Source: a virus
Lineage: Duplodnaviria; Heunggongvirae; Uroviricota; Caudoviricetes
Virus record (IMG/VR): IMGVR_UViG_2778261502_000011
Direction: 5' to 3' (one strand)
Length of the DNA: 7,041 bases
The position numbers and the translations under genes were made by a program. Shown in pieces: positions 1-7,041 of this stretch; position 1 is the stretch's first letter; each line of letters opens with the position of its first letter. Under the pieces are notes generated by a model. It saw only the letters and a program-made list of their open reading frames with translations. It ran no database searches and was not told where the DNA came from.

Positions 1-981
1 TTATAACGTCACTCCGCCTTTTAGTGGATTCAGAGCGACGGCATTTTGCAGATAGTCAGGCGCAAGGTGCGCATAGGCCATCGTCTGCTGAATGCTCGCA
101 TGTCCCAGAATCTGTTGCAGTGCGATTATATTGCCCCCATTCATCATGAAATGGCTTGCGAATGTATGCCGCAGGATGTGGGTTGCCTGATTGGGTGGTA
201 TATCAGGTTTCACTCTGCGTAAAATCCCGCAAAATTTCTCATAATCAACTTTGAATAATTTGGCGCTGGCCTCCTCTTTAACTTTTTTCTCCAGTTCCTC
301 AGAAATCGGCACGGTTCGCTTTTTACCGTTTTTGGTTTTCAGGAAGGTAACCCTGCAATTTGTAATCTGTGCTGGTTTTAGCGTGGCAACTTCCGTCCAT
401 CTTCCTCCAGTGCTCAGACATAAAAGCGCGACAAGTAAGTCATCACCAGCCAAAACATTTAACAGTTTTTCGATTTCTGCTTTTTCCAGGAACGTCATTT
501 CAGGGTTGGCCTCCGCCAGTGGCGGCAGTCCGTGAATTGGGTGTTGCCCGGAAAATTCATCCAATTGAATTAATTTTGTGAACATGCCGGATAATCGGTA
601 CATGTCACGGTTTATCGTTGCGGCACTGATACCATCACGTAGTCGCATGGAACGATAATCCATCAAAGCCCTTTTGCTCATCCTGCTCACTGGTATATCA
701 CCTATGCCGCTGATGGTTTTGAGTAGATGATTAAACTCTTTTGTTCCATGCTCGTGGTTTTGCCCGTGATATTTCCACCAGATGTCCAGCAACTCACTCA
801 AAGTCCGGCGGTCTGCTCGCTGGCCTCCCCATTCTTTCTGACTGGCATTGGCGATTGTGTATCGCTCAAATGCTAGTGCTTCAGCTTTTCTTTCGAATTT
901 CCTGCGGATGCGTTTTCCGTCGCGACCGCGAGGTCTAATGTCCACTTCATAGCGACCATCATCGAGCTTCTTAATTGCCAT
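1..981 (-). CDS. int: Tyrosine recombinase, P2-type phage integrase
   Basis: Minus-strand ORF with TAA stop at the reverse complement of 1-3. The ATG at the reverse complement of 979-981 is preceded by GGAGGG 7 nt upstream. The product starts MAIKKLDDGRYEVDIRP and carries the tyrosine-recombinase C-terminal signature (HILRHTFASH ... GH ... MAYAHL with the nucleophilic Tyr). An in-frame upstream ATG at 1011 (336 aa) has no Shine-Dalgarno sequence and is the less likely start. Confidence 0.93.
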   Translation of the reverse strand: MAIKKLDDGRYEVDIRPRGRDGKRIRRKFERKAEALAFERYTIANASQKEWGGQRADRRTLSELLDIWWKYHGQNHEHGTKEFNHLLKTISGIGDIPVSRMSKRALMDYRSMRLRDGISAATINRDMYRLSGMFTKLIQLDEFSGQHPIHGLPPLAEANPEMTFLEKAEIEKLLNVLAGDDLLVALLCLSTGGRWTEVATLKPAQITNCRVTFLKTKNGKKRTVPISEELEKKVKEEASAKLFKVDYEKFCGILRRVKPDIPPNQATHILRHTFASHFMMNGGNIIALQQILGHASIQQTMAYAHLAPDYLQNAVALNPLKGGVTL

Positions 982-1050
982 AAGAAAGCCCTCCGGCGCT
1001 GTATTCACCATCTTGGTAGCAAATGGTGAAAATGTAATCTTTATATAGAG

Positions 1051-1344
1051 TTAGCCAATCCTTTTCGCGGAGTGGTTGGACTCTGTTGACTCTGGCCCAA
1101 TGTGCGCGAGAGCCGGTGCGATTTGTCCTGCGTCCGGCGCGGTTTTATCTGTCATAAGCCATAGAGCATATTTTTGGAATGTGGGATGCATAGTGATTTT
1201 TAGCAAAGCTGTGCCACCGGGTTCAAAGTTTCCTCCTTCATATTTTTTAAGTGTGCTTAGCGGTAACTCTATGATTTCACAGAATTTTGATTGGCTTAGC
1301 CCTTCAGCCTCACGCAAGGCCTTAATCTTTTCGCTTAATTTCAT
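1051..1344 (-). CDS. C: P2 C-type immunity repressor (small HTH DNA-binding protein)
   Basis: 97-aa minus-strand ORF directly upstream of int and co-oriented with it. It faces the early operon across a short intergenic switch region. The protein (MKLSEKIKALREAEGLSQSKFCEIIELPLSTLKKYEGG ... GQIAPALAHIG) resembles the P2 C repressor as recalled, including the GQIAPALAH segment. Confidence 0.8.
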   Translation of the reverse strand: MKLSEKIKALREAEGLSQSKFCEIIELPLSTLKKYEGGNFEPGGTALLKITMHPTFQKYALWLMTDKTAPDAGQIAPALAHIGPESTESNHSAKRIG

Positions 1345-1403
1345 TTGACATGGTGCCTATATAGGGACTAAATTCCCTCAAAACTGGAACCTATATAGGT
1401 TCC
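1345..1403. promoter_or_regulatory. Putative lysis/lysogeny switch: early promoter with two palindromic operator-like repeats
   Basis: Plus strand shows a perfect -35 TTGACA at 1345-1350 and a candidate -10 TAAATT at 1369-1374 (18-nt spacer). The 10-bp palindrome CCTATATAGG occurs twice, at 1356-1365 and 1390-1399, flanking the candidate -10. The second copy sits inside a perfect 18-bp palindrome GGAACCTATATAGGTTCC (1386-1403). The leftward promoter for C/int was not pinned down. Confidence 0.45.
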
Positions 1404-1480
1404 ATTGATTTGAGAATAAACCAGCGTCTAAACGGTTTTGAGTGGTTTAGAAAGGGCTGGATCCTATGAGGGTACCATAT

Positions 1481-1753
1481 ATGGACGCTGAAAATTATGT
1501 GATTCAGTATCCGCTTGATGCGGTTCATGTGGATAAATTTGCTGATTTATTAGGGAAGCCAAAGACAGCCGTCAGTGAAATGGTGAAGGCAAATAAATTA
1601 CCAATTATTGAATTGCGTGATCCTTGCAAACCGAAGGCTCGTGCCGGTGAAAAATGGGTTTTCATTCCTGAGTTTAATCGCGCTGTACGTGAGGCGTTTT
1701 ATAACCGACCGGTTGAACAGCGTGATGCATGGCTTTTGTGGATGGGGTTGTGA
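1481..1753 (+). CDS. cox: Cox-like excisionase / switch regulator
   Basis: First plus-strand gene opposite C. The ATG at 1481 has GAGGG 7 nt upstream and gives a 90-aa product (P2 Cox is about 91 aa). The ORF extends to an upstream ATG at 1466 with a weaker Shine-Dalgarno. The C-terminus (RDAWLLWMGL) resembles the P2 Cox C-terminus as recalled. Confidence 0.78.
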   Translation: MDAENYVIQYPLDAVHVDKFADLLGKPKTAVSEMVKANKLPIIELRDPCKPKARAGEKWVFIPEFNRAVREAFYNRPVEQRDAWLLWMGL

Positions 1754-1755
1754 TT

Positions 1756-1926
1756 ATGAATGAGCCGCGTTGTATTGCTCAGTTATTGCGTAACGAAAGC
1801 CCCAGGGCGATTGACTTTACCATCACCCACGGGAAGGGTCGCAAGGGAATCATTATCCGCACCAAAAAACAGAGTCCGTTAAAAAAGGCTCTGACCTTTC
1901 TGAAAAGCCGGAGGGTCTGGAAATGA
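1756..1926 (+). CDS. Hypothetical small early protein (position of P2 orf78)
   Basis: ORF in the early operon; the six-frame ORF starts at 1729 but the ATG at 1756 follows the cox stop. Its stop TGA at 1924-1926 overlaps the ATG of the next gene (ATGA), indicating translational coupling. No motif recognised. Confidence 0.5.
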   Translation: MNEPRCIAQLLRNESPRAIDFTITHGKGRKGIIIRTKKQSPLKKALTFLKSRRVWK

Positions 1927-2423
1927 CAGTGATGACGCTCAATCTCGTCGAAAAACAGCCAGCAGCTATGCGCCGGATAATTGGTAAGCATCTTGCCGTT
2001 CCTCGCTGGCAGGATACATGTGATTATTATAATCAGATGATGGAGCGCGAACGGCTAACGGTTTGCTTTCATGCGCAGTTAAAACAGCGTCACGCAACGA
2101 TGCGTTTTGAAGAAATGAACGACGTCGAACGTGAACGGCTGGTTTGTGCAATTGATGAATTGCGTGGGGCATTCTCAAAACGCCGTCAGGTTGGCGCAAG
2201 TGAGTATGCATATATTAGTTTTTTAACAGTCAGTCAGCGTCGTACTTTATTTATGCATGCCGGATTGACTGAAAAAGAATTCAATCAGCCATACTGGCGA
2301 ATTAATGAAGAGTCATGTTACTGGCGTGATGCTTTATTCCGTGCATTACGTGAACTATTCAGTTTGTTTGAGTATGCACCGACAATTCTGACGTCGGTAA
2401 AACCAGAGCAATATCTGCATTAA
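1923..2423 (+). CDS. B: P2 gene B-like replication protein
   Basis: 166-aa ORF, the size I recall for P2 gpB, at the expected position after cox. GGAGGG lies about 11 nt upstream of the ATG at 1923. Confidence 0.7.
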   Translation: MTVMTLNLVEKQPAAMRRIIGKHLAVPRWQDTCDYYNQMMERERLTVCFHAQLKQRHATMRFEEMNDVERERLVCAIDELRGAFSKRRQVGASEYAYISFLTVSQRRTLFMHAGLTEKEFNQPYWRINEESCYWRDALFRALRELFSLFEYAPTILTSVKPEQYLH

Positions 2424-2486
2424 GTAATTAACCAGAGTTTTTAACGCACTTAATCGTGCGGGGCTTCTTTTTGCCTGGAGAAAGTC

Positions 2487-2711
2487 ATGCATACAGTTTC
2501 TGAAAATCAGTGCGGTAAATACGCATTACTGCTGCAACAGGCCAGAACCGAAGCACAGGCTGATGCTGCGACGCGCTTTTCTTCTCATCTTGACGCCATG
2601 ATTCGCCATATCACAAAGGCGGAGTTATCCCGCGTGGAGATAGTCGAGCTGCTCAGTCAGGAGTCGGAAAAATTTCACAATATCGGATTGTCTCGCGGGG
2701 AGGTGCTTTGA
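2487..2711 (+). CDS. Hypothetical small protein (P2 orf80 position)
   Basis: 74-aa ORF; ATG at 2487 preceded by GGAGAAA. Its stop TGA at 2709-2711 overlaps the next start. Confidence 0.6.
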
Positions 2712-3013
2712 TGTCCTGTTCTCATTCAGTTGTATTACTGAATAACGCCTTAAAAATCGCCGTTATGAAAAATGGCGATTTGTCTCTTATTCAACTTTGT
2801 CTTGATAAAGAAAAACGCGACATAACTGAATCTGTTATCGCGATTTATCAGAATGAATTAAACCTCCTGTCTGATGTGGTCAATTTACTTGTTAAACGCG
2901 CTGTATTTCACAAGCAAATCTCCTCCGTGGATGAACTGACGAAATTAACGACAGAAATCGCCAGCTATTGCGCTGATGAATTTAAGAAGCTGAACGACAA
3001 AAGGAGCTGGTAA
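2711..3013 (+). CDS. Hypothetical small protein (P2 orf81 position)
   Basis: ATG at 2711 with GGGGAGG about 8 nt upstream (the six-frame track starts at an in-frame TTG at 2708). Its stop TAA at 3011-3013 overlaps the next ATG (TAATG). Confidence 0.6.
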   Translation: MSCSHSVVLLNNALKIAVMKNGDLSLIQLCLDKEKRDITESVIAIYQNELNLLSDVVNLLVKRAVFHKQISSVDELTKLTTEIASYCADEFKKLNDKRSW

Positions 3014-3237
3014 TGCCGGACAACGTAGATTTTATTCAGGAACAACAGGCTGAATTACTGGAGCGCCAGATTAACGCGGCAAGGGTAAAACATTGCGGTG
3101 TTTCTGCGCTGGTTTGCGAAGAGTGTGACGCGCCAATACCTGCTGCCCGTCGTGCGGCTTATCCGTCAGCCACGCGTTGTGTTTCCTGTCAGTCAGTCTT
3201 TGAAGCAAAAAACAAACATTACCGGAGAATGGCATGA
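3013..3237 (+). CDS. TraR/DksA-family C4 zinc-finger protein (P2 orf82-like)
   Basis: 74-aa ORF with AAGGAG 7 nt upstream. It contains CEEC-(17 aa)-CVSC, the CxxC-x17-CxxC spacing typical of DksA/TraR zinc fingers. Confidence 0.75.
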   Translation: MPDNVDFIQEQQAELLERQINAARVKHCGVSALVCEECDAPIPAARRAAYPSATRCVSCQSVFEAKNKHYRRMA

Positions 3238-3509
3238 GTATTCGTATCGAAATTGGCGAACGTTATGTCGTTACCAGTGACAGCTTTCAGTTTATTCTCC
3301 ACGAGAAAAAGAGAGCGGAAAGCGGTAAAAACGCCGGTCAGGAATGGCTGGCGGTGGTTGGTTATTACCCGAAATTAAGCCAGCTCGTTTCCGGCCTGAT
3401 GCATCACGATATTCTGACCGGAAGCGCAAAGTCTTTTGCTGATTTAAACGCGCAGGTTGAGCAACTCAGCAAGCGTTGTTCAGAGGCTTTTGGCTCATAT
3501 GGCCGTTAA
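3234..3509 (+). CDS. Hypothetical small protein (P2 orf83 position)
   Basis: 91-aa ORF; ATG at 3234 overlaps the preceding stop, with GGAGAA upstream. It overlaps the start of the gene A remnant by 11 nt. Confidence 0.6.
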   Translation: MSIRIEIGERYVVTSDSFQFILHEKKRAESGKNAGQEWLAVVGYYPKLSQLVSGLMHHDILTGSAKSFADLNAQVEQLSKRCSEAFGSYGR

Positions 3510-3787
3510 AGCCTCCGGGCGTTTTGTCCCTCCGTCAGCATTTGCCGCAGGCACCGGTAAGGCGTTTACCGGTGCTTATGCATGGAACGCGCCACGCGAG
3601 GCTGTCGGGCGCGAAAGACCCCTTACACGTGACGAGATGCGTCAGGTGCAAGGTGTTTTATCCACGATTAACCGCCTGCCTTACTTTTTGCGCTCGCTGT
3701 TTACTTCACGCTATGACTACATCCGGCGCAATAAAAGCCCGGTATCCGGTTGCTGATGAGTGGTCGGTTTTTTCAATTAAACAATAA
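3499..3787 (+). pseudogene. A: Remnant of replication initiator gene A: N-terminal ~85 codons fused out of frame to the last ~12 codons
   Basis: From the ATG at 3499 the product reads MAVKASGRFVPPSAFAAGTGK...YDYIRRNKSPV, matching my recollection of the P2 gpA N-terminus, and stops at 3754-3756 after 85 codons. In the +2 frame the next codons read YPVADEW...* (stop at 3785-3787), resembling the gpA C-terminus. The junction lies at the short direct repeat CCGGT / CCGGT (3740-3744 and 3746-3750). A roughly 760-aa protein has been reduced to under 100 aa. Confidence 0.7.
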
Positions 3788-3839
3788 TGGCTACTGCCGC
3801 AGCGTTGTGGGAATGCTATAGTGTTTGTAGAATTATCCC

Positions 3840-3870
3840 ATGAAAAACAACTAATTAATCTGTTTTTCAT
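3840..3870. repeat. Perfect 10-bp inverted repeat (ATGAAAAACA / TGTTTTTCAT) with 11-bp spacer
   Basis: Read directly: ATGAAAAACA at 3840-3849 and its reverse complement TGTTTTTCAT at 3861-3870, in the AT-rich intergenic region between the A remnant and the methyltransferase. A T-run follows at about 3883-3889. It could be a protein-binding site or a weak terminator or hairpin; function is unknown. Confidence 0.5.
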
Positions 3871-3934
3871 ATTGAACTAATTTTTTATGGCCACAGTTGT
3901 TAAAAAGTGAGAACATAATCTTGTTCAAAACCTG

Positions 3935-3988
3935 CTTCTATATACGGAGGCTTTCGCTATAATACGCGGTCGGTTTTAGGAGGGGATA
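3935..3988 (+). promoter_or_regulatory. Putative promoter and RBS of the methyltransferase gene
   Basis: Consensus -10 TATAAT at 3958-3963 with only a weak -35 (CTTCTA at 3935-3940, 17-nt spacer). Shine-Dalgarno AGGAGG at 3978-3983 lies 5 nt before the ATG at 3989. Confidence 0.45.
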
Positions 3989-4933
3989 ATGCCAACAGTA
4001 GTTTCACTTTTTTCTGGATGCGGTGGTTCCGATGCGGGGGTTCTGAGAGCTGGCTTTGATGTGCTTATGGCCAACGATATCTTGCCGTATGCGCGCGATG
4101 TTTATATTGCCAATCATCCAGAAACTGATTACATTTTAGGCAATATTGCTGATGTAACTACTTTTCCTAAATCTGATTTGCTAGTAGGTTGTTATCCATG
4201 TCAGGGATTCAGCCAGGGTGGTGCGCGTAAGGCCGATCGAAAAATTAATACTCTTTATTTAGAGTTTGCTAGAGCTTTAAACAATATAAAGCCTAAAGCT
4301 TTTATAGTAGAAAACGTGTCTGGTATGGTTAGAAAAAACTTCGAGCATTTGTTATCTGACCAGATCAGGGTTTTTACTGAAGCAGGTTATGCTGTTTCAG
4401 CAAAAGTTTTGAATGCGGCTGAATATGGAGTAGCGCAGGAAAGAAAAAGAATATTTATCGTAGGAATCCGTAATGATTTCAAAGTTAAGTACGAGTTCCC
4501 TCAGCCAACTCATGGGCCGGCGACTGGCGTCAACTATGTTACTATTAAAGATGCTATAGGGCATTTACCTGAATGGCCAGAAGGTGAATTTTATGATATG
4601 GGGTTCCATTGGTATTATATGTCTCGCAATCGTCGCCAAGATTGGGATCAAATTTCAAAGACAATAGTTGCTAATGCAAGGCATATGCCGTTGCATCCTA
4701 TCAGTCCTTCGATGGAGAAAGTAAGAACTGATGAATGGAGGTTTGTTGAGGATCGGAGAGCTCGCAGATTCAGTTTTCGAGAGGCAGCACTATTACAAGG
4801 GTTTGAGGATCTAGTGTTTCCCGAAACAAATGCTGCAAGTCTTGGCATGAAATACACGGTGGTTGGTAATGCAGTGCCTCCGCCGCTTTTTGAAGCTGTA
4901 ACGAAGGCATTGCCAATAGAATTATGGGATTGA
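3989..4933 (+). CDS. DNA (cytosine-5)-methyltransferase
   Basis: 314-aa ORF with a strong RBS. It carries the canonical C5-MTase motifs in the correct order: FSGCGG (motif I, AdoMet binding), PCQGFS (motif IV, catalytic Cys), ENV (motif VI), QERKR (motif VIII) and GNAV (motif X), with a short variable region between VIII and IX for target recognition. Confidence 0.92.
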   Translation: MPTVVSLFSGCGGSDAGVLRAGFDVLMANDILPYARDVYIANHPETDYILGNIADVTTFPKSDLLVGCYPCQGFSQGGARKADRKINTLYLEFARALNNIKPKAFIVENVSGMVRKNFEHLLSDQIRVFTEAGYAVSAKVLNAAEYGVAQERKRIFIVGIRNDFKVKYEFPQPTHGPATGVNYVTIKDAIGHLPEWPEGEFYDMGFHWYYMSRNRRQDWDQISKTIVANARHMPLHPISPSMEKVRTDEWRFVEDRRARRFSFREAALLQGFEDLVFPETNAASLGMKYTVVGNAVPPPLFEAVTKALPIELWD

Positions 4934-4940
4934 TAATCTA

Positions 4941-5930
4941 TTAAGGCTCTGGATTTAATGTATAAAGTTCTTCTTCAAATTCGCGAAACCAATCAGAGGT
5001 AGTTATCGCTTCCCATTGGTTTGCCTTATCAAGTAGATATATGATCCTCAACCTATCTAATAATAATACACCAGCGGTTGCATGTGTGCTTACCCATTCG
5101 CCATTTGCTTCCCGATAGAAAACAGGCGTGAACATTGTTGATGGATGCTGGAAAGCAATTTGGAAATAGGTGGTCAGTTTTAACACGTTAGCCTCTAATG
5201 TTTTGCTTGGCCACCCTGTTTCTTGTGCACCACATTGACCAAGAATTCCATAGTTGCTAGTTTGACCATCAGGAAATTCCACTGTAGCAATTAGGTCAAA
5301 CCCAGCATCACCAGATGTGGGAGCTTTATTTATTTCCCTTGTGTTTAAACTACAAACTCCAAGATCTTTTCCTAAAATTTGTAGAGCATTCCGAAGATTC
5401 GTTCCATAATATTTTTGCCTATCATCGGAGTTAGCATCAAAAATTCTTACGGTGCCATGTGCAGGTAAGAGAGAAATCATTGCAACTTTACATACTCTGG
5501 CAAAGCTCTTTGCCCAACGTTGTGCTGCTCCTCTAATCGACTTAAAGGATCTAAGTCTAGAGCAGCAAAGGAGAAAAACATATATTCTTTGTTGTTGGTT
5601 TAGATTTTCTTTAATAATTATCTCATCACCTGAAATTATAAATGGATATATCTTTCCAAGAGCGCTTTCTCTATATTCGAGTTGTGTCCAAACATCTTCT
5701 AGTTGCTCTTCAAAACGATCATTTCTCTCTGCGTCTCCATCAATTTCTTCTTCAAAATTACATTCTTCATCAATTTCTTCAACACTTGTCATGCCGAATT
5801 TTCTTACTGAATCTAAATCATTTTTATGCAGAGAGTTACGTCCGGTATAATTAATCACCGTGAGTAACTCGGCTAAATCTGCAAACAAATGGGGAGAGTT
5901 GGGATGCATAACTCCTACTTCAAAAGTCAT
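4941..5930 (-). CDS. Uncharacterised protein, downstream partner of the ParB-family gene (function unknown)
   Basis: Long minus-strand ORF (track: 4941..5936, 331 aa) with three consecutive in-frame starts (GTG 5936, ATG 5933, ATG 5930). The ATG at 5930 has GAGGT about 4 nt upstream. The start overlaps the stop of the upstream gene (5920-5922), so the two are translationally coupled. The protein has an acidic segment (EEIDEECNFEEEIDGDAERNDRFEEQLED). I find no Walker A motif and no catalytic motif I can name. Confidence 0.75.
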   Translation of the reverse strand: MTFEVGVMHPNSPHLFADLAELLTVINYTGRNSLHKNDLDSVRKFGMTSVEEIDEECNFEEEIDGDAERNDRFEEQLEDVWTQLEYRESALGKIYPFIISGDEIIIKENLNQQQRIYVFLLCCSRLRSFKSIRGAAQRWAKSFARVCKVAMISLLPAHGTVRIFDANSDDRQKYYGTNLRNALQILGKDLGVCSLNTREINKAPTSGDAGFDLIATVEFPDGQTSNYGILGQCGAQETGWPSKTLEANVLKLTTYFQIAFQHPSTMFTPVFYREANGEWVSTHATAGVLLLDRLRIIYLLDKANQWEAITTSDWFREFEEELYTLNPEP

Positions 5931-7041
5931 CATCACCTCTGCTATTTTTCTCTGCTATTTCAGAACCTATAAGCTTAATATGTTTATTGATTCTTCGTGC
6001 TACTTCATGAGCCTGTCTATCATACTCTACTGTGGCAACCATGCCTGCTGCATCTATCAAAGCCGCTTCAACTTGATAAAGTAACTGGAGAAAGTCCTTA
6101 GTAATATCAGATGTCAATTGGTAGGCCACTGCGAGTGGAGCCCCCATTCGGAATTGCTCCAATGCCTTAGGGCTACTGACAACAGCAGCTAATTCTCTTA
6201 AATTACGTGACTCTCCAACACGAGTTTTTTTATCCTCACCTTTTTTATATAACCACTCAGTTAGCTCTTTTATTTCTTTGTTCTTTAAGCTATTAGAGTT
6301 GATAATAGGATGACTTGGTATTGTGTCTCCATCGTCTTCGATTGAAACTCCGACAAATTGGCCTAACCGCTCATCAGCAAGTGCTGTTGATAATACTGAA
6401 AATTTAATCGTTTCTTCATCTAGTTTTTCAATACCATAAAAATCATTTTCTTTAATGATTTCATACACCGCTAAAGCGTCTAGGTTACGCTTGATATGAT
6501 CCCTACGACTGCCAATAGCTCTGGCAACCTCATAGTAGCGTAGCATCGGATCCTGATTTGCATTGGTATAATCAAAAAGCTGTTTAATATATCGAGCTTT
6601 TGATAAGGGCTCCCATTGTTTGACACCAGTAATATGTCTGAAACCAAGATACGGAAGAATCTCTTCTCTTGTTTGGCGCTCAATGACAGGAACACGATCG
6701 ACTGTATGTTTTGCATTTGATGCAATTTCTCGTAGTCGAGCACTTGGATTTTCACATAGTGTCGGATCGCGTAATAATTTAACTGCGGATAGGCGACGGT
6801 TTCCTTCAACTACAATGTACTTCCCCGGCGCGACACTGTCAGGAATGACAATCAATGGTTCTCCAGGGAAAAAACCATTTTCCGCAATAGCACTCATTAG
6901 ATCTTCGATAGATGTTGAGGTTGCTATGTAGTTAATCATTCCCAATTGGTCACGAGACACGCCTTCAGGAAGTCTTGGGTTTTCTGTGTCAAGTTCCAAA
7001 TCATCTAGCGGAACATAAAGTATTTCTGAATCAGCAATCAT
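5920..7041 (-). CDS. ParB/Spo0J-family protein (ParB N-terminal domain plus HTH) with an uncharacterised C-terminal extension of about 180 aa
   Basis: 373-aa minus-strand ORF whose ATG is the reverse complement of 7039-7041, at the window edge. The N-terminal ~90 residues fit the ParB N-terminal domain pattern: ENPR (res 20-23), SIEDLMSAIAENGFFPGEPLIVIP (box I-like) and YIVVEGNRRLSAVKLL (GxRR arginine patch, nt 6784-6807). A box III-like VIERQTREEIL and an HTH-like YYEVARAIGSRRDHIKRNLDAL (res ~168-192) follow, resembling the Spo0J recognition helix region. No HNH or other nuclease motif was recognised in the C-terminal part. Confidence 0.8.
   Translation of the reverse strand: MIADSEILYVPLDDLELDTENPRLPEGVSRDQLGMINYIATSTSIEDLMSAIAENGFFPGEPLIVIPDSVAPGKYIVVEGNRRLSAVKLLRDPTLCENPSARLREIASNAKHTVDRVPVIERQTREEILPYLGFRHITGVKQWEPLSKARYIKQLFDYTNANQDPMLRYYEVARAIGSRRDHIKRNLDALAVYEIIKENDFYGIEKLDEETIKFSVLSTALADERLGQFVGVSIEDDGDTIPSHPIINSNSLKNKEIKELTEWLYKKGEDKKTRVGESRNLRELAAVVSSPKALEQFRMGAPLAVAYQLTSDITKDFLQLLYQVEAALIDAAGMVATVEYDRQAHEVARRINKHIKLIGSEIAEKNSRGDDDF

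Follow-up and report, generated by a model that had tools for sequence, protein, structure and literature searches.

The 7041-nt stretch of DNA examined here, referred to below as the window, is the IMG/VR virus record IMGVR_UViG_2778261502_000011 (Caudoviricetes). Its upstream part contains the genes int, C, cox, B and orf80-83 of a P2-like prophage, followed by the 5' part of gene A. The subject of this analysis is the cargo block that comes next (3788-7041), a cassette in which a C5-cytosine DNA methyltransferase (MTase) gene faces two coupled minus-strand genes encoding a ParB-like protein and a 331-amino acid (aa) protein, designated X (Table 1). The cassette is 100% identical to the corresponding DNA of Escherichia coli ATCC 8739 (NZ_CP043852.1), where RefSeq annotates the same three coding sequences (CDSs), and 97% identical to that of Yersinia phage HQ103. 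An earlier note, made from the sequence alone, had described three complete genes with this convergent layout, and both the open reading frames (ORFs) and the RefSeq CDSs agree with that description. The stop codons of the MTase and X genes are 7 bp apart, and the X and ParB-like genes overlap by 11-17 nt.

Table 1. Coordinates in the window of the cassette genes and of the features adjoining them
Feature	Position	Strand	Basis and remarks
C5-cytosine DNA methyltransferase, 314 aa	3989-4933	+	Pfam, TIGR00675, motifs
X, 331-aa ORF	4941-5936	-	RefSeq start at 5930 gives 329 aa; predicted nuclease effector
ParB/Srx-superfamily protein, 373 aa	5920-7041	-	PD-Lambda-5_A, PDC-M38A, invariant motifs; its ATG occupies the final triplet of the window
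Gene A (P2 replication endonuclease), internally deleted	3499-3787	+	Junction of the 5' 246 nt with the last ~46 nt at 3742-3744, causing a frameshift
MTase leader, intergenic	3788-3988	+	Perfect TATAAT at 3958-3963; AGGAGG Shine-Dalgarno before the ATG; read from the sequence

The block was said in the same note to be AT-richer than its surroundings and to occupy the tin/old position of P2, and both statements hold. The GC (guanine plus cytosine) fraction is 0.35-0.43 across 3800-7041 and 0.44-0.53 upstream, and in NZ_CP043852.1 and HQ103 the block is flanked by gpA and the portal gene gpQ. It therefore belongs to the tin/old hotspot of a P2-like element, which is bounded by genes A and Q and adjoins cos. 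According to annotation, this placement is shared by NZ_CP043852.1, HQ103, vB_EcoM-12474III, Wφ and Salmonella 186-like prophages.

The plus-strand gene encodes a C5-cytosine MTase of the Dcm/HaeIII type, with full-length matches well above the family cutoffs (Pfam DNA_methylase PF00145, 5e-65, 220 bits for a cutoff of 22; TIGR00675, 191.7 bits for a cutoff of 100.65) and with all the catalytic motifs present (P70-C71-Q, ENV, QERKR for QxRxR, and GNAVPP). Its closest solved relative is M.HaeIII (PDB 1dct, 2.8e-48 over residues 4-308), and from this likeness the target site is probably short. The PADLOC profiles DruM2/MTase_II were matched as well; however, matches to DruM and DrmMII reflect general C5-MTase similarity. 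Druantia type II and DISARM were rejected, because the DruE helicase, DruF/G and DrmA/B/C are absent between gpA and gpQ, an interval that holds three genes, none of them a helicase. The PD-Lambda-5_B profile does not appear among the best 25 of the 63 PADLOC families matching the MTase. Orthologues encoded beside the ParB-X pair in other taxa are 60-78% identical to it; their target recognition region is conserved at 51-72%, which argues for one MTase lineage, probably with one specificity. In HQ103, the MTase ORF is intact (L002, 8202-9146; 99% protein identity) yet has no annotated CDS in the GenBank record, in which the cassette genes are all labelled hypothetical.

The ParB-like protein (phrog_3694, with >2000 relatives) consists of an N-terminal ParB-type domain with NPR, EGNRR and RH motifs, a ParB-like helix-turn-helix (HTH) at about residues 165-195 and, towards the C terminus, a conserved helical region. 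Its best PADLOC matches are PD-Lambda-5_A (1.6e-28; residues 9-192 against profile positions 7-196 of 440) and PDC-M38A (2e-21; residues 43-339). Pfam ParB_N (13.3 bits; cutoff 26.3) and TIGR00180 (5e-8, 32.8 bits; cutoff 58.45) both remain below cutoff, while the solved ParB structure 4umk aligns over the GxRR patch. In an alignment of 27 homologues the NPR, EGNRR and R-H-I-x-G motifs are invariant: the GxRR patch is kept as EGNRR, and an invariant F-R-H-I-T-G is also present, which we take to occupy the position expected for box III (ENLQR) of canonical ParB sequences. Members of the family match ParB_N and also GmrSD_N weakly (GmrSD_N in 5 of the 27, best E 6e-4), the window protein not being among those matched by GmrSD_N. 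The earlier assignment to the ParB/Spo0J family consequently stands at the level of the superfamily, on the PD-Lambda-5_A match and the invariant NPR/EGNRR motifs, and not below it, where the ParB_N and TIGR00180 scores fall short. As judged from these profiles, a ParB label is valid at superfamily level only. A canonical ParB of the ParABS partition (CTPase clamp) type was rejected on account of the same two scores and of the lack of a ParA gene in the locus. A HEPN domain in the C-terminal region was likewise rejected, since the histidine of the candidate motif RRINKH (Rx4H) is not conserved in the 27 homologues. In the Yersinia P2-like phage L-413C only a 3'-truncated ParB-like gene is found (L025, 207-1199; 62% identity over residues 9-303), which runs into orf91; X and the MTase have been lost there, and this copy is therefore a decayed cassette remnant.

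X belongs to phrog_3984, of unknown function, and its family makes up 1191 representative clusters when grouped at 50% identity. Neither the window protein nor its diverse relatives (sets of 61 and 7) matched a Pfam, NCBIfam or PADLOC family. It had been described as a protein without recognisable motifs, a statement that has to be withdrawn, since a restriction-endonuclease fold was found in it: the N-terminal half is helical with a winged helix, and the C-terminal half has a PD-(D/E)xK restriction-endonuclease fold with the signature GD210xGxD214...Q234-C-G...K245. Among 61 diverse members, there is no variation at D210, D214, Q234 and W242 and almost none at G209, C235 and K245. When the family profile was compared with the catalytic segment of MspJI (4f0p), SGDgGlD...GQC aligned to SGDGGVD...GQAK with E = 0.014, and the sole credible Foldseek match was again MspJI (E = 0.012, probability 0.97). 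In all, three independent lines indicate a restriction-endonuclease fold; each is weak to moderate, but they agree on a winged-helix plus PD-(D/E)xK protein whose nearest relative is probably MspJI. The canonical lysine position of the D...QxK motif is occupied by Gly or Ala in X, so K245 may substitute for it. Membership of the MspJI family itself was rejected: the D and Q residues align, but the K is replaced by G/A, and the N-terminal part resembles winged-helix proteins and not SRA domains.

The three genes form a unit. A locus scan with one genome per species returned 21 loci, and in all 19 in which both genes were visible the ParB-like gene directly precedes X, with an overlap; the same arrangement was found in every further contig where both could be seen. 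ParB-like and X divergences are strongly correlated (r = 0.95, n = 18), and MTase divergence tracks that of the pair (r = 0.78) except in Wφ. An orthologous MTase gene (60-77% identity by tblastn) is adjacent to the pair in 12 of about 16 informative genome loci, and one MTase lineage flanks it in about 20 of 24 informative loci overall. The MTase gene is usually convergent with the pair and downstream of it; it is upstream on the same strand in Undibacterium and in an Acidobacteriota metagenome-assembled genome, and two metagenomic contigs contain a co-directional operon in the order MTase, ParB-like, X. In one metagenomic contig the MTase-ParB-X operon is directly followed by vsr (L034, 3170-3619), a gene for very-short-patch repair that usually goes with active C5 methylation.

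The cassette ranges over Gammaproteobacteria, Betaproteobacteria, Acidobacteriota and several P2-like phages including Wφ. The trio was found in phages HQ103, vB_EcoM-12474 and Wφ, in Salmonella 186-like prophages (there, too, in the P2 hotspot), in a Burkholderia integrative element and in an Aeromonas prophage. Its contexts are the P2 hotspot, prophage ends or the neighbourhood of a Type I S subunit. Within the 21 scan loci only that of Edwardsiella is placed in the P2 hotspot, and the cassette therefore moves independently of P2. About 1% of complete E. coli genomes contain it, and 48 of 48 cassette-bearing E. coli genomes keep the whole block. The trio is a real, horizontally mobile module; it co-occurs and stays syntenic across phyla, P2-like prophages included, which answers the question of co-occurrence elsewhere raised in the earlier note.

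A literature search (ParB + restriction + methyltransferase; PDC-M38) found no paper characterizing the cassette. It has nevertheless been seen before. A table of P2-hotspot loci lists 'ParBc + DNA_methylase + hypothetical' in about 99 entries with ATCC 8739-type accessions, and the corresponding Wφ locus (mth + orf96 + orf98, from E. coli ATCC 9637) was cloned as pFR107 and labelled 'RM-like' (Rousset et al. 2022, PMC9122126). In Wφ (L026, 96-3266), at the same hotspot position as in the window, mth is 76% identical to the window MTase; gp96, which has the GDxGxD...QC motif, is homologous to X (25% identity, E = 2e-25) and gp98 to the ParB-like protein (34% identity), and both fall in the PHROGs of their window counterparts. 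This outlier suggests either that the MTase was exchanged between deeply diverged pairs or that it is under much stronger constraint. A second relative is PD-λ-5, described as 'ParB/HEPN, methyltransferase', a validated system of broad activity which needed a host with the mrr-containing region deleted and which its discoverers interpret as a compacted restriction-modification (R-M, or RM) plus abortive infection (Abi) system (Vassallo et al. 2022, PMC9519451). HEPN genes had earlier been noted to share operons with genes for ParB and a methylase (Anantharaman et al. 2013, PMC3710099), and a ParB-superfamily protein with a C5 methylase and a different effector is also present in the P2-hotspot table (supplementary file 6 of Rousset et al. 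2022, PMC9122126). The earlier opinion that the gene combination matches no known system is thus contradicted by the PD-Lambda-5_A match and by the Wφ clone. The cassette is already catalogued, labelled RM-like and related to PD-λ-5; its defence function is predicted.

Each of the closest known systems differs from it in some respects. With pFR107 the window cassette has in common its three-gene architecture and its hotspot; the restriction-arm proteins are deeply diverged, and the Wφ version alone has been cloned. With PD-λ-5 it shares a protein with a ParB-type N-terminal domain, a DNA MTase, carriage by prophages and an interpretation, by the discoverers of PD-λ-5, as compact RM(+Abi). However, PD-λ-5 has two genes, the second being the MTase, whereas a conserved nuclease-fold gene is added here as a third. 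PD-λ-5_A is a ParB N-terminal domain fused to HEPN, whereas the window protein is similar to it over about 190 N-terminal residues only and its family lacks a conserved HEPN Rx4-6H motif (27 homologues), the effector being instead a separate PD-(D/E)xK protein absent from PADLOC. Identity with PD-λ-5 was rejected on both counts, the HEPN fusion and the number of genes.

As in Type II R-M systems with a C5 MTase (HaeIII), the gene of a monomeric M.HaeIII-type MTase faces a neighbouring gene whose product has a PD-(D/E)xK restriction fold. The cassette differs from them in that this restriction-fold gene is always coupled to a ParB-like gene, the nuclease is devoid of the canonical lysine, and a controller (C-protein) gene is absent from the locus. 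GmrSD, BrxU and SspE resemble the pair in combining a ParB/Srx-fold subunit with a DNA nuclease, GmrS and GmrD being likewise two coupled genes, but they target modified DNA and have no protective C5 MTase partner, and the nuclease here is PD-(D/E)xK rather than HNH/DUF1524. An assignment to GmrSD/BrxU Type IV was rejected, as the window protein has no GmrSD_N match and neither an HNH nor a DUF1524 domain is present. From the MspJI family (Type IIM/IV, dependent on 5-methylcytosine, 5mC) X differs also in that overall similarity is weak. The 'ParB + methylase + HEPN' operons are alike in their three components (ParB-superfamily protein, C5 methylase and nuclease effector) and in their association with mobile elements; their effector is a HEPN RNase, whereas here it is a restriction-endonuclease-fold protein and a predicted DNase. 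A C5 MTase with a ParB-superfamily subunit and a split restriction-endonuclease-fold nuclease is an architecture unlike any characterized R-M type. The view that the layout is not that of a canonical Type I-IV R-M, partition, Dnd, BREX or DISARM system is supported.

We favour, with confidence that is evenly balanced, the reading that the block is a self-contained, mobile, methylation-keyed R-M-like module that includes an accessory subunit of the ParB superfamily and travels as cargo in the P2 hotspot. This reading is based on (i) the strict coupling of the pair, (ii) a dedicated MTase lineage that accompanies it in two gene orders and many contexts, (iii) the vsr neighbour, (iv) the restriction-enzyme fold of X and (v) the homology of the ParB domain to that of a validated ParB + MTase defence system. 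The MTase would mark the DNA of the lysogen as well as the prophage's own DNA, and the two translationally coupled minus-strand proteins would constitute the restriction arm. The ParB-superfamily protein may bind or load onto DNA by means of its ParB-type N-terminal domain and HTH, possibly in a nucleotide-gated manner, and X would be a PD-(D/E)xK nuclease (MspJI/NgoMIV-like) attacking DNA without the mark. The outcome would be either direct restriction or an abortive, PD-λ-5-like response. The methylation-linked module suggested by the earlier note thus survives in the form of a methylation-linked nuclease module, which is the best reading of the locus.

Several observations weigh against it. 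Activity of X would require K245 to replace the missing canonical lysine, and the structural scores for X are modest. Apparently intact pairs without an adjacent MTase were found at three loci (L004, L014 and L016) and probably at a fourth (L009). In the first three every conserved residue of X is retained; two of them, from Methylococcales, have the pair between housekeeping genes (L014, 6851-8963, nadA/guaA; L016, 6857-8861, prmC/cvfB), and in the third it lies beside a Type I R-M S subunit and an AAA ATPase (L004, 6839-9008). If the endonuclease were constitutively lethal, such pairs would be difficult to explain, except with an MTase encoded elsewhere in the genome. The interaction of the ParB-like protein with X, nucleotide binding and methylation sensitivity are all matters that we infer. 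Finally, pFR107, tested with its native flanks in MG1655 against eight phages, is not among the protective systems; three of the eight additional P2 systems were protective, namely DUF4238, a three-gene system without clear domains and DprA-PRTase (Rousset et al. 2022, PMC9122126). Since these are the only three reported, the RM-like clone was not reported active against the eight phages in MG1655, and a constitutive short-site Type II-like enzyme should restrict λ. Note, however, that methylation of the M.HaeIII type is a substrate of McrBC and that MG1655 is mcrBC+ mrr+; therefore, the test in K-12 may have been unfavourable to the cassette. ATCC 8739, in which the window cassette resides, serves as an 'E. 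coli C' strain, of a lineage regarded as restriction-less.

Two of these difficulties, the lack of reported constitutive restriction by the Wφ version and the survival of pairs without an adjacent MTase, would be eased if the effector were normally silent. This is what is expected of a triggered, PD-λ-5-like 'RM+Abi' module, in which the MTase would mark self, the ParB-like protein would sense foreign or unmethylated DNA or a phage cue, and X would be unleashed non-specifically to degrade cell and phage DNA, so that the infected cell dies; neither classical restriction nor epigenetic escape would be expected. The homology of the ParB N-terminal domain to that of PD-λ-5_A, which carries it in fusion with a HEPN toxin, the interpretation of PD-λ-5 as compacted RM+Abi and the existence of parallel 'ParB/DUF262 + DNA_methylase + HEPN' operons are all consistent with such a module. 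We think it rather unlikely, however, given that a restriction-enzyme-like fold with a winged helix is not a typical Abi toxin, that the Wφ version was not reported protective at all and that there is no known trigger. The pairs without an MTase also fit a different proposal, for which the probability seems low: the ParB-like protein and X would form a modification-dependent, Type IV-like nuclease directed against modified phage DNA (comparable to split GmrS/GmrD or to MspJI), and the MTase would be functionally separate cargo, for instance shielding phage DNA against the restriction systems of other hosts. MspJI, to which the nuclease domain is closest in structure and sequence, is indeed a 5mC-dependent enzyme, members of the ParB-like family weakly match GmrSD_N, and in Wφ, where the MTase is 76% identical and its partners only 25-34%, divergence of the MTase does not track that of the pair. 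But a 5mC-dependent nuclease tightly linked to a C5 MTase would be self-destructive, and in about 80% of informative loci the pair has a member of a single MTase lineage beside it, with either of two gene orders and also outside phages. Moreover, an SRA-like reader of 5mC is not evident in X, whose N-terminal part is winged-helix, and the HNH/DUF1524 domain of GmrSD is absent.

The missing canonical lysine and the lack of reported protection by the Wφ version could, on the other hand, mean that the cassette is not primarily anti-phage. It would then serve selfish addiction or maintenance, or act as an epigenetic and regulatory cassette of the prophage, with the ParB-like protein acting in DNA segregation or silencing and X being a degenerate, non-catalytic DNA binder. 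In this connection, about a quarter of P2 hotspots hold partition-type genes (Rousset et al. 2022, PMC9122126). We regard this as improbable: there is no ParA or StbA partner, the invariance of D210, D214 and Q234 and near-invariance of K245 in a family of more than 1000 clusters argue for catalysis, and the strict MTase linkage and the vsr neighbour fit the logic of R-M. As R-M systems are themselves addictive, this explanation partly overlaps the methylation-keyed restriction that we favour. An extension of the favoured reading, which we put forward tentatively, is that the cassette represents a distinct and widespread class of R-M, in which a ParB/Srx protein, possibly a nucleotide-gated DNA clamp or loader, would read the mark of the C5 MTase and license a separate MspJI-like nuclease, the effector slot being interchangeable (restriction-endonuclease fold here, HEPN in PD-λ-5).

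The gene A remnant noted upstream of the cassette is real in the window, but gene A is intact in NZ_CP043852.1, the only genome that matches at 100%, with an annotated CDS of 2277 bp. In a BLAST comparison with that genome, window 1-3744 corresponds to L001 6226-9969 and window 3742-7041 to L001 11955-15254, both at 100%, so that 1985 bp internal to gene A are missing from the window; the junction has a 3-bp microhomology ('gta'). No match to the junction was found in 5426 complete E. coli genomes or in IMG/VR. The remnant is therefore a property of the window and not of a known prophage, as the matching genome is intact and the junction was found nowhere else searched. It is either a private deletion, which would make the prophage replication-defective, or an artefact of the construction of the window. 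A consensus promoter scan did not list a full two-hexamer promoter in the MTase leader. A 54-aa ORF (3706-3870, minus strand) lies antisense over the end of gene A and this leader, and in the matching area of HQ103 a 40-aa hypothetical CDS is annotated; there is no evidence that the ORF is a gene. In many complete E. coli RefSeq chromosomes (hits H3-H5, H9, H10, H13-H17 and H21) the cassette occupies positions 2278-5531 of the record. Their numbering therefore begins with the first base of the 2277-bp P2 gene A, and these assemblies seem to have been rotated to the prophage replication gene instead of dnaA.

Should the cassette prove active, it would add to the R-M repertoire a mechanistically different restriction arm, made of a ParB-superfamily subunit and a split restriction-endonuclease-fold nuclease, and would assign a function to two large families (X, about 1200 clusters; the ParB-like protein, >2000 relatives). 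It would also join PD-λ-5 and the 'ParB + methylase + HEPN' operons in one modular family and, if the distinct-class interpretation were true, ParB-type DNA loading would link the discrimination of self from non-self to cleavage in a new way. Current defence-finder tools would overlook the cassette or take it for an orphan MTase or for an incomplete PD-λ-5 match. Among its carriers are P2-like phages that form plaques, diagnostic Yersinia phages included, and in these the MTase would also alter the methylation of both phage and host DNA.

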